Positions 8,066-15,934 of a DNA stretch of 64,000 nt are shown here, one piece after another. Within the stretch, counting starts at the first letter, position 1; each line of letters opens with the position of its first letter. The translations under genes were made by a program, and so were the position numbers. The stretch comes from Candidatus Porifericomitales bacterium (lineage in GTDB: Bacteria; Pseudomonadota; Gammaproteobacteria; CBDEFV01). The notes under the pieces are model-generated. The model was given only the letters and a program-made list of their open reading frames with translations, did no database searches and was not told where the DNA came from. The stretch is from assembly GCA_965237735.1 (NCBI GenBank), contig CBDEFV010000002.1:33958-97957 (forward strand), in the 5' to 3' direction.

Positions 8066-8866
8066 ATGAACAATCTCACCCTCACCGAAGAGCAGACCGA
8101 ATTTTTAATAAAGACGCTTCAAGACGGAAAAGAAATTCCGCTTGATTTTAAGCACTTGCTTTTCCCAACCACTAACAAAGAATATGAGTTGGCGTATGCG
8201 GGGAAAATGCGTAAAGAGGATTTGCTTGCAAACGAGGATGGGGTTTTTCCTGTTCCGATTCAAGTTGAAAAAGTGTTCAATGGCAATGAGTATAAAGCGT
8301 TTGAGGATGGTTGGAAAAACATGCTCGTGTTTGGTGACAACCTGCAATTTCTTAAAACTCTCTATAAAAATGAAGACCCACTTATCAAGGATAAGGTGAA
8401 AGGAAAAGTAAGACTGATTTATATCGATCCGCCTTTTGGTACTGGTGACGAATATGACGGAAACAGAGGACAAAGTGCCTACAGTGCAAAAAGAAAAGGT
8501 GCAGAGTTTATAGAATTCCTAAGAAGAAGATTGATTTTACTGAGAGAGTTGCTTGCTGATGATGGAAGTATTTATGTGAGAATAGATTATCGTTTCGGAC
8601 ATTATGTCAAAGTATTGATGGATGAAATTTTCGGTAAACAAAATTTCAAAAACCAGATTGTGATTAATAAATCAGTAAGACCGATGGAGGGTGTAAGACA
8701 ATTTCATTCTGGGCATGATTTTTTATTGTTCTATAGCAAGACAAACAATTATTGCTTCAATAACTATGAAATTCAAAAAGAAAGAGTACAATATCGTGCA
8801 ATGCACTTACCTGGTGTTCGATGGTCACCCATAGGTTATGAAGAAAAACAAAATTGCTGGATTTGA
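8066..8866 (+). pseudogene. mod: Type III R-M adenine methyltransferase (Mod), N-terminal fragment
   Basis: FGDNL, IYIDPPF (motif IV), HYVKVLMDEIFG; no motif I (FxGxGT) in this ORF or the next. Confidence 0.8.
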
Positions 8867-9578
8867 ATTTGACGGCAAAAAAGGTGACTTTCCAGTAAAG
8901 ATATTTGATTATCGAACTTTTAAGAATTCAAAAATTGATGAAGACTACCTCGAAGAAATACACGCCGTTGTCGGAAAGAGGGTGAGTGGCCGTGTATATA
9001 TCATCGCCCCTATAAATTATGTTGATTTCCTTCCTGACTATCACGAAATTGATAGGGTGAAATATTATTTCCTCAAGATCCCGTATCACGTTATCAAAGG
9101 TCTGCACAAAGAGTCATTCCATAAATTACGCCAACCGCAGAGCAAGAAAAATGTGAACGACCTAGAAGAAGCGATCGGTTTTCACTTCATTCACCATCCC
9201 GAAGTAAAGTCTGAATTAAAGAAAGGCAAGGACGGGGTAAAGATTGTGATCGAGAGCTTTGTGAGTCGCGAGCCTGAATCAGGCAGGGCACAAGACGAGA
9301 GGGGTATGAAGAATTTTGAAACTCTTTCGGCTGTCTTTGTGGACAAGAGCTACAATGGCAGGGCGTTCGAGATGGATGAAGCGTTTTTTGCCGATGAGCT
9401 TTTGCCAAAGAAATCAAAAAAGAACGACAGCGATGGTGAAGATATAAAAGTGGAGCTGAAAAAACTGGAAAAGAAGGGTTTGGAAATTACACTCAAAAGA
9501 TCAGGACTTGAAAAGCAAGTGATGGTAATTTATATAGATATATACGGAAATGATTTTTCGGAAGTATTCACGATATAG
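8838..9578 (+). pseudogene. Probable C-terminal fragment of the Mod subunit (may be translated separately)
   Basis: Overlaps the mod fragment by 29 nt in another frame, sits between mod and res, has the same low GC and no catalytic motifs. Confidence 0.6.
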
Positions 9579-9583
9579 AGAAT

Positions 9584-12178
9584 GTGGTTGTGCAAGATAG
9601 TAAAACCTACAGGCAAAAAGACTTGGTTCTCAATGTAAACCCGTCTTATGATCCGGCGAAACTCGATTTAAGCGCGTGGGATTCTTTCCTAGACACTTTG
9701 TGTGGCGATAGAGAGTATCAAAAAGAGGCAACAAAACAGGCGATCATTTTCCTTGCATCCCAGCGATATGAGACAACGCAAGATTTAGTGGCTGAAAACT
9801 ACCCGAAAAATCCTGAGTTGCAGGAAAAATACTCCACTAAAAACGACTACTATTGTCGCTTGCAACTCCAAGATAAACTTTTTGCAAATATTGATTTAGC
9901 GACGGGTACAGGAAAATCCTATGTGATCTACGGTGTTGCACAGATAATGCTCGGATTTGGTTTGGTAGACAAGGTATTGGTGCTTTGTCCGTCTTTAACC
10001 ATTGAAAATGGTTTGATGGAAAAGTTTGAACGATTAAGCGGAGACGGGCGAATCAAAAAAGCTATACCAACAAATGCGCGCTACGCAAACCCGAGTATTG
10101 TTGATGCAAATGTTACGGTAAAAGAGGGAAGCATTTGCATAGAAAACATCCACTCTGTTTACGAAACAACAGGATCATCAATCAAAGATAGTTTTCAAAA
10201 GGGTGAGCGCGTCTTGGTGCTCAATGACGAATCTCACCATATTTTCAATAGGATTTCAGGCAACATGGCGGGAGCTAAAGGATTAAAGCAGTGGAAAAAG
10301 TTTTTGCTTAACTCTGACTATAAATTTAAGTACATTCTTGGCTTTACTGGTACGGCATACCATGACAACAATTATTTTAACGACATTATCTATCGCTATT
10401 CGCTTCGCGAGGCGATTGGGGATCGGATTGTAAAGAATATCGAATACGTCCAGAGGGATGATAGTATAGGAACGGATGAAAAGTTTCAGAAAATCTATCA
10501 AAACCACAGAGAAAACATTGATAATTACCCAAAGGTCAAACCGCTTTCTATTTTGATCACCAAAGATATTTCAAAAGCAAAAAGCCTGCGAGAAGATTTG
10601 ATTAATTTTCTTGAAAAGAAAGAAGATAGACCACAAGAAAGTGTCGAGAATAAAGTGTTGATTGTTACTTCTCACAAAGAACACAGAGCAAATCTGCTGA
10701 AACTAAAAACGGTTGATGACAGAGAAAACCCGGCCGAATGGATTGTGTCTGTCTCCATGCTCACAGAGGGGTGGGATGTAAAAAATGTGTTTCAAATCGT
10801 TCCGTGGGAAGACAAAGCTTTTAATTCAAAACTGCTTATCGCTCAAGTTTTGGGTCGCGGATTGCGTTTGCCAGAAGCGTATACTTCTCCGCAACCAAAG
10901 GTGATTGTTTTTAACCACGACGCTTGGAGTAGACGTATAAAAGCCCTTGTTGATGAGGTTTTAGAAATTGAAACTCAAATGATTAGTGAAGTCATAACAA
11001 GCGGCGATCGTTTAAAACATCACTTTGACCTGCATAACCTTAATTACACCAGAATAGAAGTTGAGGTGGAACACAGGCCAAACCCTGTCGTTAATTATTC
11101 CCGCATTGAAGAAGAGGGTATCAAACTGGAGTCTCAGGTTACACAAGTAGAAAAAGGGACCTCTTATGAATCCATAGAGGGCAGGGTTCGAGACAAAAAA
11201 TACATTATTGAATACGAAACAAGGACTGTTCAAGAAGTTGTAGACCGAATTTATGGAGAATTTGAGATCAGGGACTGGGAAGGAAGAATTTTGAGACTCG
11301 GTGAGGAACGATACACGCAAAATAATTTGCCACCAAAAGAAAAGATCCGAAAGATCATTCTCAAATCAATGGGAAATGTTAGTATCCAGGGCGATCAAAT
11401 TATTGAGAGAAATGTTAATCAGATACTCAAGGCATTTGGCACTCTGCTGCGAGGGGGGAGCAAAACAGTCGTCCCCAAATTGAAAGTGGAGGATCCTGTT
11501 CCAATTTCTACCAAAGAGATTATGCGTGAAAGTTCAGCTATCGGCAACTTTAGGCGTGGATATTCACTGTTTTATACAAATGACTGGGAAAATGAGGTTT
11601 TGGATGACGAACAGCGAAGTATTATAAAAAAGTTCATAGAAGATGAGAGTTTGCCAAGAAGCGCAGTCAGGGAACGAAACCCGTTCTCTTTCAAGACACC
11701 AGTCAGTGTTGTCTTTACTAATTCAGAGCCAGAGCGGAGATTTATTGAAAAACTCTGCGAAGACGAAGTGGCAGGGAAAATTGACGCTTGGCTCAAATCA
11801 CGGGATCGCGGCTTTTACGGCATTCAGTATTCTTGGCGACCATCGAATCACCAAAAAACGGGAGAGTTCAACCCTGATTTCTTCATTAAGGTCGGCAAGG
11901 ACGGTGTGGAATATTTTGTTGTTGTGGAGATAAAAGAAGACAAGGATGACAGTGATGAGAATAAGGCGAAGTATAAATATGCCAACAAGCATTTCGAACT
12001 CCTAAATCAAAGGCTTAAAGACAAGAAAATCAAACAAAAATACATTTTCCATTTCTTGAGCCCGGAAGGATACACAACTTTCTTTGAGTATCTAAAGGAT
12101 AGAAGAATCCTGGACGGACAAGAAAAGTTTAGGTGTGAGTTGGAAAATCTTATAGAAACAACTGACGATGAAGAATAA
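9584..12178 (+). CDS. res: Type III restriction endonuclease Res subunit (SF2 helicase/ATPase plus PD-(D/E)xK nuclease)
   Basis: LATGTGKS (Walker A), LNDESHH (Walker B), FTGT, MLTEGWD, QVLGRGLR, C-terminal PDFF...VEIK. Confidence 0.9.
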   Translation: MVVQDSKTYRQKDLVLNVNPSYDPAKLDLSAWDSFLDTLCGDREYQKEATKQAIIFLASQRYETTQDLVAENYPKNPELQEKYSTKNDYYCRLQLQDKLFANIDLATGTGKSYVIYGVAQIMLGFGLVDKVLVLCPSLTIENGLMEKFERLSGDGRIKKAIPTNARYANPSIVDANVTVKEGSICIENIHSVYETTGSSIKDSFQKGERVLVLNDESHHIFNRISGNMAGAKGLKQWKKFLLNSDYKFKYILGFTGTAYHDNNYFNDIIYRYSLREAIGDRIVKNIEYVQRDDSIGTDEKFQKIYQNHRENIDNYPKVKPLSILITKDISKAKSLREDLINFLEKKEDRPQESVENKVLIVTSHKEHRANLLKLKTVDDRENPAEWIVSVSMLTEGWDVKNVFQIVPWEDKAFNSKLLIAQVLGRGLRLPEAYTSPQPKVIVFNHDAWSRRIKALVDEVLEIETQMISEVITSGDRLKHHFDLHNLNYTRIEVEVEHRPNPVVNYSRIEEEGIKLESQVTQVEKGTSYESIEGRVRDKKYIIEYETRTVQEVVDRIYGEFEIRDWEGRILRLGEERYTQNNLPPKEKIRKIILKSMGNVSIQGDQIIERNVNQILKAFGTLLRGGSKTVVPKLKVEDPVPISTKEIMRESSAIGNFRRGYSLFYTNDWENEVLDDEQRSIIKKFIEDESLPRSAVRERNPFSFKTPVSVVFTNSEPERRFIEKLCEDEVAGKIDAWLKSRDRGFYGIQYSWRPSNHQKTGEFNPDFFIKVGKDGVEYFVVVEIKEDKDDSDENKAKYKYANKHFELLNQRLKDKKIKQKYIFHFLSPEGYTTFFEYLKDRRILDGQEKFRCELENLIETTDDEE

Positions 12179-13455: not shown

Positions 13456-13723
13456 GGGGCGCCTGCATGGGCCGCAGAGGCGGCGGCCGGGGAGCCGACT
13501 GCTGCCGATCGCCGGAGTCGAGGGGGGCGCTGTCGTCGGGGCTCCCTGTTGAAGGCTTTTCTGCTGCTTTGTTAATTTTTTGTAATATCCAGGGCGCCGC
13601 TTTTTAACCGCCTGTGGGGTTGTTTGGTCTCTGGAGCTTATAATAAAAAACGTTGAGCCGGTGCCCCTGACTCTGACAGGCATTGGCATTTTTGTCCCCA
13701 ACAATCAAAGGAGATTGTCAATT

Positions 13724-13987
13724 ATGAACTCACAGCAATTTAAAATCAATGGCAAAATGCTCGCCTTCGCCGCGGCTTCCCTGCTTGTCGCCGGTTGCGC
13801 CAAAATGGGCGAAGCCTCGGACGTCGCTGCCGGCAAATGCCATGGCGCCAATGCCTGCGCTGGCCAAAGCGCCTGCCAGACGGCCAATTCCTCCTGTCAA
13901 GGGCAAAATGCCTGCGCTGGCCAAGGTTGGTTGCAGCTGAGCAAGGGCGAGTGCAGCAAAAAAGATGGCAAGTTCGAAGCCATCTGA
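13724..13987 (+). CDS. Cys-rich RiPP precursor (bufferin BufA2-like) with lipoprotein signal peptide
   Basis: AGGAG RBS at 13709-13713; 87 aa; LVAGC lipobox (Cys25); six further Cys in KCHGANACAGQSACQTANSSCQGQNACAGQGW...EC; directly upstream of DUF692. Confidence 0.85.
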   Translation: MNSQQFKINGKMLAFAAASLLVAGCAKMGEASDVAAGKCHGANACAGQSACQTANSSCQGQNACAGQGWLQLSKGECSKKDGKFEAI

Positions 13988-14005
13988 GCCAGAGTCTTCT
14001 ACTGT

Positions 14006-14055
14006 GCCGGCGAGGGCCGCGGTTCGGATTGACCGGGCCCGACCTTCGCTCCGGC
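14006..14055 (+). promoter_or_regulatory. Imperfect intercistronic stem-loop after the precursor gene
   Basis: GCCGG(14006-10) pairs with CCGGC(14051-55), CGAGGG pairs with CCTTCG, plus an inner GC stem; no U-tract. Confidence 0.45.
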
Positions 14056-14117
14056 TTGTTCTTCGATAAAACGATTCGCGCCTTTGGTGCGCTGACTTCC
14101 GGGTTGATTGATACTCA

Positions 14118-14987
14118 ATGAGTTCTTTTCTCGGTTTTGGGTTGGGTCTCAGAGCTGAGCACTATCAGAGCATTCTCGAACGGAAAGCAAAAACAGACGG
14201 GCCAAAAATAGACTGGTTCGAGATCATTTCCGAAAACTACATGGTTGACGGCGGCAAGCCGTTGCATTTTCTCGATCGCGTACGGTGCGACTACCCCTTG
14301 GCCATGCACGGGGTATCCCTGTCCATCGGAGCCAGCGAAGAGCTGGATCAGGACTACCTGCGGCAGTTGAAAGCCCTGGCCGAGCGCATCGAGCCGGTGT
14401 GGATCTCCGACCACCTCTGCTGGACCCGCGGCGACGCCCACTACCTGCACGATCTCATGCCCCTGCCCTACACCGGCGAGGCCGTGCGCCACTTGGCCGG
14501 GCGCATCAGCCGGGTGCAGGATTTCCTCGGCCAGCGCATTCTGCTGGAGAACCTGTCGAGCTACGTCAGCTTCCGTTCCTCCGAACTCGAGGAGTGGGAG
14601 TTCTTGGTAGAGGTCGCCGAGACCGCCGACTGCCTGCTGCTGCTCGATATCAACAACATCTTCGTCAGCGCCCGCAATCACGGCTTCGACCCGCGCCTCT
14701 ATGTGGATGCGGTACCGGTCGAGCGGGTGCGCCAGTTTCACCTCGCCGGCCACACCACCAACGAGAGCGGCAGCATCCGCATCGACACCCACGACCAGCC
14801 CGTTTGTCAGGGCGTGTGGGATCTCTACGGCTATGCCGTCGAGCGCTTCGGCCAGGTAGCGACCATGATCGAGCGCGACGACAATATTCCGCCGCTGGCC
14901 GAGCTGCTCGAGGAGCTGGAGCAGGCGCGCCGGATTGCCGAGGCCGTCTGGTCGCGCTGTGGCACCCCTGCCGGAGGCGGACTCTGA
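14118..14987 (+). CDS. DUF692 multinuclear non-heme iron oxidative enzyme (MNIO; BufB/MbnB family)
   Basis: [50 protein letters not shown] iron-ligand motifs. Confidence 0.93.
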
Positions 14988-15934
14988 GCGAGCTGGCGAG
15001 ACTGCAGAAGCTCTTTACCGACTGGGTGACTCATCCTGCCGTCGGCAACGAGGGCATGGAGGAGTTGATCGTCGGCGACGACAGCGCCTCGGCGGTCGAG
15101 CGCCTCGACGTCTACCGCAACGCTTACCGCCTGCGCCTGATCAAGGCCATGGCCATCGAATATCCCGGTCTCAGGGAACTCATGGGCGATCAGGAGTTTG
15201 CCGGGCTCGCCTGGGCCTTTGTACAGGCGCACCCGCCCGAGCACGCCTCCCTGCGCTGGGTCGGGCGCGGCCTCGATAGTTTCGTGCGCCGGACGCCGCC
15301 CTGGCGGGAGCAGGAGGTGCTGGCCGAGATGGCCAGCTACGAGTGGGCTCAGGGACTGGCCTTTGACGCCGCCGACTCCGTGGCCGTCACGATCGGGGAG
15401 TTGCAGGCCCTGCCGGCCGACCGGTGGCCCGGGCTCAGCTGCCGCCTGGTGCCGTCCTGCCAGCGGCTCGACCTGCGCTGGAAGATTCCCCTGCTGAACC
15501 GGGAGCTGCGACGGCGGCCGGGCGACTCCGGCGAAGACATCGACGAGCGCCTGTCCATGCAGAGCTCCAATGTCGCCACCCTGCGCCTGGTTCAAAAAGA
15601 AGAAGAGCGGGGAGTGGACGCGGCCGCCATTAAAGAGTTGCTGCGCCCGCAGTCGCAGCCGCACCCCTGGGTGCTGTGGCGCCATGGCCTCGACATTCAC
15701 TGGCGCTCTCTGGGCCATGCCGAGGCCTGGGCCCTGCAGCAGGCCCGGCAGGGGCAGGTGCTGGCCGATATCTGCGAGGGTCTGTGTCACTGGTTTGCCG
15801 TCGATCGAGTGCCGCTGGAGTTCGCCTCCATGCTGAATACTTGGGTTGAGGGCGGCCTGGTCGCCGAGTTTCTGCCGGCGTCAAAGCCCGGACTGCGTAT
15901 CGTCGCCGACAGGCAGGAGGGCGGCAGCCGGTAA
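14984..15934 (+). CDS. DUF2063 (BufC/HvfC-like) MNIO partner protein; probable CTG start
   Basis: LARLQKLF...[14 protein letters not shown]...YPGL...ASYEWA. No in-frame ATG/GTG near the start; GGAGG at 14973-77 lies 6 nt before CTG 14984. Confidence 0.85.

Follow-up and report, generated by a model that had tools for sequence, protein, structure and literature searches.

The stretch of DNA analysed here (the window; 64,000 nucleotides of contig CBDEFV010000002.1, assembly GCA_965237735.1, from Candidatus Porifericomitales bacterium) carries a three-gene tandem, bufA2-bufB-bufC, on one strand (+) at positions 13724-15934. We found that this locus is probably a functional operon making a bufferin of the Buf2 type (= captophorin), whose precursor lacks Lys after all four modifiable Cys residues, a loss that most likely leaves its function unchanged. 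Bufferins (captophorins) are a very large and recently defined class of copper-buffering peptides that are made on ribosomes and modified after translation (RiPPs), and the rules by which enzymes of the MNIO family choose cysteines are now being worked out. The locus is a genuine, atypical member of this well-described family, which the models of NCBI would name automatically; nothing in it is evidence for a new function, and it is no new kind of system. The host genome comprises 2.27 Mb with 63% G+C and is 97% complete. A spacer of 130 nt separates bufA2 from bufB, and bufB and bufC overlap by 4 nt (CTGA):

13724-13987, + strand: bufA2, encoding the 87-aa bufferin precursor, with the product MNSQQFKINGKMLAFAAASLLVAGCAKMGEASDVAAGKCHGANACAGQSACQTANSSCQGQNACAGQGWLQLSKGECSKKDGKFEAI.
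14118-14987, + strand: bufB, encoding a DUF692/MNIO bufferin maturase of 289 aa (NF050167, PF05114).
14984-15934, + strand: bufC, encoding the DUF2063 partner (PF09836), 316 aa if its start is the CTG at 14984.

The precursor was recognised by the NCBIfam model NF050166 ("BufA2 family periplasmic bufferin-type metallophore") with 67.8 bits at a cut-off of 60 (E = 7e-19). BufB matched NF050167 ("MNIO family bufferin maturase") with 383 bits, above the curated cut-off of 310, and PF05114 with 366 bits, and its score against the HvfB model was 274 bits, below the 360-bit cut-off. The N-terminal part of BufC is a DUF2063 domain (PF09836, 70.1 bits vs a cut-off of 27.2). A preliminary description of the window had read the genes for precursor, DUF692 and DUF2063 proteins as a tandem and as a bufferin-type MNIO RiPP cluster, and had proposed a hidden Markov model (HMM) search against BufA2 models; coordinates and profile scores agree with it, and the matches to NF050166 and NF050167 make the cluster one of the BufA2/Buf2 type. 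A DoxX gene is absent from the cluster, which is typical of Buf2.

In BufA2, residues 1-24 form the signal peptide, residues 26-38 a variable tether and residues 39-77 the six-Cys domain. The six core Cys residues (39, 45, 51, 58, 64 and 77) are those counted in the preliminary description, which had also quoted the motifs CAGQSAC and CQGQNACAGQG correctly. The family spacing of these residues is kept, and so is every residue that an alignment of 128 BufA2 sequences shows to be invariant (C39, N43, C45, C51, C58, N62, C64, G68 and C77). An AlphaFold2 model of the precursor (predicted local distance difference test score 69 overall, 70-87 in the core) contained two strands (residues 36-40 and 69-73) and a helix (residues 74-79), in accordance with the published description of BufA2 as two strands and a short helix (PMC11626156). 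C39 lies on the first strand and C77 on the helix, so that in the model the two would be placed for the family disulfide; a fold search of the PDB with the model gave no match. In Buf2 of Caulobacter vibrioides, a shift of -4 Da was demonstrated on each of the four central Cys residues, which become 5-thiooxazoles, together with a disulfide joining the first Cys to the sixth and induction by copper (PMC11626156). The same chemistry on the same residues is predicted for the window peptide:

13856-13918, + strand: codons Cys45 to Ala65, including four Cys (C45, C51, C58 and C64) predicted, by homology with C. vibrioides Buf2, to become 5-thiooxazoles.

The C. vibrioides system (BufA2/BufB2/BufC2, CCNA_02999-03001; Buf_6/12Cys) has the same three genes as the window and likewise no DoxX. 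The two share the spacing of the six Cys residues, the invariant Asn and Gly residues, a Sec-type signal instead of a leader peptide, an MNIO with a DUF2063 partner, and the enzyme motif E-R-D-D. They differ in that the window precursor has a signal of the signal peptidase II type (signal peptidase I type in C. vibrioides) and no Lys after the modifiable Cys residues, in the substitution N109Y of BufB, in a BufC that is ~50 aa longer (interdomain insertion plus C-terminal tail), and in the absence of SigF/NrsF from the genome. The fontiphorin/oxazolin/gonophorin systems (FonB, HvfB) similarly use an MNIO and a DUF2063 partner to place 5-thiooxazoles on a Sec-exported copper-binding peptide (PMC13097082); their precursors, however, carry EGKCG repeats (Lys-Cys), and their enzymes have Phe after the catalytic Asp, where that of the window has Asp.

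The Sec-type signal and the lipobox of BufA2 were judged by sequence rule. The n-region contains K7 and K11, and a hydrophobic core of 13 residues follows, directly at the end of which L-V-A-G-C25 fits the pattern [LVI][ASTVI][GAS]C:

13796-13798, + strand: Cys25 codon, the predicted lipidation site, in the lipobox LVAGC.

This lipobox is identical in the relatives P0002 (92% precursor identity) and P0003 (90%). The 13 residues after Cys25, in contrast, are variable, with insertions and deletions among the relatives, as expected of a tether. The genome encodes both Lgt (210 bits) and LspA (101 bits), each above its cut-off. The lipobox LVAG-C25 named in the preliminary description is thus as it was given, and the genome encodes the enzymes for its processing. 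The residue at +2 after Cys25 is Ala, and an Asp inner-membrane retention signal is absent, which by homology would point to the outer membrane; the +2 sorting rule is not universal in Gammaproteobacteria. To our knowledge, no lipidated bufferin has been characterised experimentally.

A lipoprotein signal is not in itself new among bufferins. Lipoprotein signal peptides were reported for ~16% of Buf2 bufferins, which are possibly membrane-anchored (Leprevost et al. 2025, PMC12452194), and bufferins are listed among predicted RiPP-lipoproteins in a study in which DybA, a chryseobasin-type MNIO RiPP, was shown experimentally to be triacylated via the lipoprotein pathway (2026 PNAS, PMC13056109). 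As in the window, a lipobox ends the BufA2 signal peptide of these predicted lipoprotein-type Buf2 systems (PMC12452194, PMC13056109). Beside the closest BufB genes, 11 of 81 precursors carried a lipobox by a rule-of-thumb scan and ~15 after reading by eye; sampled examples of BufA2 with a lipobox are L017, L031, L033, L044, L067, P0024 and P0058. The lipoprotein signal of the window precursor is therefore a published minority feature. The preliminary description had put the locus forward as a candidate for an uncharacterised system; its novelty is largely lost, and the caveat attached to it, that such variants may already exist, applies. Nearly all other lipobox-bearing Buf2 precursors have kept Cys-Lys dyads, whereas that of the window has none.

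Taken together with the known systems, these features suggest the following maturation. The 87-aa BufA2 precursor would be synthesised in the cytoplasm, and the iron enzyme BufB with its partner BufC would oxidise C45, C51, C58 and C64 to 5-thiooxazoles before the peptide is exported via the Sec system. With the lipobox LVAG|C25 closing the signal peptide, processing would be expected at Cys25: Lgt would add diacylglycerol to Cys25, LspA would cleave before it, and the new N-terminus would be acylated. With the structural disulfide C39-C77 formed, the product would be a copper-chelating peptide of 63 residues, held by its 13-residue tether at the periplasmic face of a membrane, probably at the inner leaflet of the outer membrane given the Ala at +2. 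There, the anchored product may buffer copper present in excess, a role that the soluble bufferins have in Caulobacter.

The most unusual property of the precursor concerns the residues that follow the modifiable Cys residues. After C45, C51, C58 and C64 stand A, Q, Q and A, where the family mostly has Lys. The precursor group was named "Cys-Lys" for its dyads, and an Asp of the enzyme (BufB2-Asp251) was proposed to contact the substrate Lys (Gadgil et al. 2026, PMC13097082). Multiple Cys-Lys dyads define the "Cys-Lys" captophorins, and the window peptide has none at its modifiable Cys residues (0/4) or anywhere else, so that it falls outside this definition. How rare this is was estimated in several samples. 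In a representative sample (the best 150 of 1,016 matches in a library clustered at 50%, comprising 163 domains), Lys followed the second Cys in 142/163 domains, and Lys or Arg followed the fifth Cys in 133/163. Among 81 precursors encoded next to those 80 BufB genes of GTDB genomes that are closest to the one in the window, Lys followed the second Cys in 80/81 and none was Lys-free; across these samples, 87-99% of domains have Lys after the second Cys. Of 401 genomes drawn evenly from the phylum, 22 had BufA2 above the cut-off, and all of the 26 domains read had Lys at this site. The statement in the preliminary description that BufA2 peptides have Lys at these positions was therefore correct.

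We pooled these samples with the best 120 matches of a profile search in a set of 5.8 billion proteins; these are the most consensus-like matches and carry little weight for rare variants. Of the resulting ~440 domains, 5 (~1%) outside the window lineage were free of Lys and Arg at all four Cys+1 sites, and the window lineage contributes three sequences. The cases elsewhere are the single-domain lipoprotein P0079 and the second domains of the tandem 12-Cys lipoproteins P0008, P0105, P0161 and P0164. Complete loss of Lys at Cys+1 thus appears, from these sequences, to be a rare but recurrent variant with several origins. The characterisation of the peptide in the preliminary description as Lys-poor and near-neutral applies to the Cys+1 sites but not to the peptide as a whole: the mature peptide contains 6 Lys in 63 residues and has a net charge of +1, which places it at the 25th family percentile for charge and the 19th for Lys fraction, within the family range.

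A scan of metagenomes for GQNxCAGQGW yielded 66 contigs (loci L124-L189), mostly from one sediment clade whose precursors have K, A, A and A at the four Cys+1 sites; one member, L126, has A, A, A and A. This "KAAA" Buf2 clade (marine and estuarine sediment metagenomes, representative P0031) is very like the window in core and tail (SACATATTSCAGQNSCAGQGW...GGKFEA), but its precursors have signals of the signal peptidase I type and no lipobox, and its MNIO has E-R-D-G (Gly in nearly all members read) and Asn109 where that of the window has E-R-D-D and Tyr109. In a tree of BufB, the window lineage forms a well-supported trio on a long stem, located in an unresolved neighbourhood with KAQK, KAAK, KAKK and KAAA groups. 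The nearest loci are of the Sedimenticola type (KAQK), and KAAA is a separate, well-supported clade in the same neighbourhood. Among these neighbours, the loss of Lys is thus graded and recurrent, with the window lineage at its extreme.

We then compared BufB with related enzymes. H64, H99, E144, D177, N180, H208, D223, H225 and E252 align to MbnB chain 7tcr_A at positions which we take, from the MbnBC structures, to be the metal ligands of MbnB. The motif I-E-R-D254-D255 is present, and Asp at the equivalent of position 255 is found in 82/82 close BufBs. With Asp after the catalytic Asp, the window enzyme has the mark of Cys-Lys-type MNIOs, whereas Lys-Cys enzymes have Phe. Five otherwise conserved sites differ in the window BufB from 79 close BufBs, the strongest being G104R and N109Y, both of which fall in the loop that follows the SDH metal-ligand motif. 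The codons of interest are:

14442-14444, + strand: BufB Tyr109 codon, lineage-specific; Asn in 75/79 close relatives.
14880-14882, + strand: BufB Asp255 codon, following the catalytic Asp and equivalent to BufB2-Asp251.

Among bufA2-linked MNIOs, Tyr109 was found only in the window lineage and in a distant enzyme beside the Lys-poor tandem precursor P0008 (L118); in the Cys-Lys-type BufBs that we compared, the site is occupied by N, Q, H or S. Tyr also occurs there in two MNIOs that are probably not of the BufA2 type, one with no adjacent precursor found and one a second MNIO copy in a locus. The MNIO sites beside the other Lys-poor precursors P0079, P0148 and P0105, located on short contigs, lay outside this comparison.

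BufC of the window lineage is 309-316 aa long, against a median of ~262 aa. Its C-terminal half aligns over its full length with 75 BufC homologues except for an insertion located between the DUF2063 and C-terminal domains, where column occupancy among these homologues is 0, and a C-terminal extension of ~15 aa follows:

15509-15631, + strand: BufC insertion, ~36 aa in total, in two pieces with five aligned residues between them (residues ~176-216).

Partners of the BufC/PME type 1 combine an N-terminal DUF2063 domain with an RRE-like C-terminal one; the C-terminal half of the window protein gave no HMM match, BufC had no sequence match in the PDB, and the HvfC model scored 32 bits against a cut-off of 142. 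In the related loci L084 (5232) and L085 (5255), bufC starts with a GTG that shares bases with the bufB stop (GTGA); in the window the codon is CTG, at 14984. The next in-frame starts, GTG at 15026 and ATG at 15056, would each remove conserved N-terminal residues. Coupled re-initiation can still take place at a CTG that overlaps a stop in this way, and is plausible here but probably weak; the CTG may alternatively be an assembly error.

The loci L084 and L085 are syntenic, with the gene order queG-bufA2-bufB-bufC-DUF2909-thioesterase-HAD, and like the window they have AQQA at the four Cys+1 sites. Relative to these, at dS ~0.4, the ratio of nonsynonymous to synonymous substitution rates (dN/dS) was 0.07-0.12 for bufA2, 0.06-0.07 for bufB and 0.19-0.24 for bufC. 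All three genes are thus under purifying selection, which maintains the variant precursor and its enzymes.

Several points weigh against a fully functional Buf2 operon. Without the Cys-Lys dyads that the enzyme is proposed to read, full modification of the precursor by BufB would not be guaranteed. No other above-cut-off match in the 401 genomes has a BufA2 score as low as that of the window precursor, and the CTG start may keep the level of BufC low in this genome. Copper is proposed as the ligand by homology, and the analysis of the surroundings detected neither SigF/NrsF in the genome nor a copper gene beside the operon. It is conceivable on these grounds that the precursor, without its Lys recognition elements, is modified partly or not at all and serves as an ordinary Cys-rich lipoprotein with thiolates or disulfides, or that the operon is decaying in this genome; the loss of every Cys-Lys dyad from a substrate whose BufB keeps the Asp proposed to bind Lys, the mutated bufC start and the low HMM score would all fit. 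We nevertheless consider this very improbable. Purifying selection is strong on all three genes across three genomes at dS ~0.4, the metal ligands of BufB are all intact, and so are the invariant columns of the precursor and the residues preceding the modified Cys (NAC, SAC, SSC, NAC), which are the source of the heterocycle carbonyl. In addition, a clade that has lost three of the four Lys residues is abundant in sediment metagenomes, and the CTG start need not abolish translation of bufC, as coupled re-initiation remains available to it.

Alternatively, the enzymes may have been retuned for a Lys-free substrate, through N109Y in BufB and the insertion in BufC, so that the product would be a distinct lipid-anchored metallophore in affinity, metal or membrane hand-off. 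The restriction of Tyr109 to the window lineage and, independently, to the enzyme beside P0008 would be expected in that case, as would the restriction of the BufC insertion to the window lineage; the KAAA clade, moreover, changes a neighbouring site (Asp255 to Gly), so that enzymes of Lys-poor clades differ near the active site. However, the independent cases of Tyr109 number only two, and the fully Lys-free precursor of L126 is paired with an Asn109 enzyme. We rejected G104R as a charge compensation, since Arg104 is also found in BufBs with KKKK precursors. A simple covariation of site 255 with the substrate Lys was not supported either: Asp occurs with KAAK and AQQA, Gly with KAAA, AKAK and KAKK, and Ala with AAKK and KKKK, with no simple relation to Lys count. 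Of the proteins or lineages with a fully Lys/Arg-free domain, 5/6 are lipoproteins, which would suit a link between lipobox and low Lys, but these cases are too few and too closely related to carry weight, and no association was detected in 204 single-domain precursors (Fisher p = 1.0). Furthermore, Buf1 bufferins bind copper with no conserved flanking Lys (PMC11626156). We therefore regard retuning as unlikely, and the different metal preference or modification suggested in the preliminary description is supported by no result here.

It could also be asked whether Cys25 is incidental, with the signal peptide cut by signal peptidase I and a soluble periplasmic bufferin released, like the characterised ones, all of which are soluble (PMC11626156); by rule, a sequence with Val at -3 and Gly at -1 would suit signal peptidase I too. 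A perfect lipobox, unchanged across three relatives whose following 13 residues differ in sequence and length, speaks for lipidation, as do the Lgt and LspA genes and the occurrence of the same arrangement in the published ~16% of the Buf2 family, and there seems to be hardly any chance that the product is soluble. A functional operon for a lipid-anchored Buf2 bufferin, with the loss of Lys leaving function unchanged, thus remains the probable reading.

The locus offers a clean natural test of the idea that Asp reads Lys: the precursor has lost every Lys at the Cys+1 sites, BufB retains the Asp, and the genes stay under purifying selection. If retuning were true after all, the lineage would amount to a natural "Lys-to-Ala scan" of Buf2 in which Asp255 is kept, and residue 109, besides the published Asp251 site, would read the residue after the modified Cys. 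The survey shows how frequent the loss of Lys is and in which clades it occurs, and the locus would lend itself well to showing by experiment, for the first time, that a bufferin is lipidated.

Upstream of bufA2 and in the bufA2-bufB spacer, we found the following elements:

13569-13589, + strand: AT-rich direct repeat TTGTTAAT-N3-TTGTAAT, a candidate regulator-binding site conserved in L084 and L085.
13639-13644, + strand: TATAAT, a -10-like hexamer within the block GCTTATAATAAAA, which is invariant in three relatives.
13657-13694, + strand: hairpin in the leader, with a 9-12-bp stem and, after it, the U-run ATTTTTG, ~30 nt upstream of the bufA2 start.
13709-13713, + strand: AGGAG, Shine-Dalgarno sequence of bufA2, read from the sequence.
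14006-14055, + strand: G+C-rich stem-loop with no U-run in the bufA2-bufB spacer (predicted fold).

The direct repeat is near-identical in L084 and L085 and occurs nowhere else in the 2.27-Mb genome. A copper-type regulon acting through it was considered and rejected, given that the repeat is unique in the genome and NrsF is absent. A consensus promoter scan detected no full sigma-70 site on the + strand and no good -35 element for the TATAAT hexamer. In a consensus fold of three sequences, the leader hairpin kept 9/9 core stem pairs, with one-sided changes only, and it resembles an intrinsic terminator or an attenuator. The fold of the spacer (13985-14120, 136 nt) is weak, with a z-score of only -1.55, and L084 and L085 conserve part of its sequence; its stem-loop may act as a stabiliser or as a partial attenuator that sets the ratio of precursor to enzyme. 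Rfam gave no match for the bufA2 leader or for the spacer. The copper regulators SigF/NrsF of Caulobacter are absent from the genome, and no sigma/anti-sigma pair was found near the operon. Divergent extracytoplasmic function (ECF) sigma/anti-sigma genes accompany some Buf2 loci elsewhere, such as L118 (NrsF-type anti-sigma) and L122 (zf-HC2-type anti-sigma, with DoxX); the window lineage has none.

The genome contains a second bufferin cluster at C4:445808-449599 (L003), which is of the Buf1 type and comprises a DUF2282 precursor, an MNIO (I-E-W-D-T) and a DUF2063 protein. Both bufferin families, Buf1 and Buf2, are thus present in the window genome as in C. vibrioides, although NrsF is absent from the former. 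The preliminary description had suggested that the product might hand its metal to a membrane partner, but no such partner is conserved beside the operon. We considered whether the DUF2909, thioesterase and HAD genes downstream belong to the cluster or supply a membrane partner, and rejected this because their synteny is limited to the window lineage; the DUF2909 gene is adjacent only there and in two Legionella loci. Further upstream, between aspS and queG, lies a low-G+C block of ~4.2 kb (8066-12178) with restriction-modification-like open reading frames. Since aspS and queG are adjacent in L084 and L085, this block is an insertion specific to the window genome.

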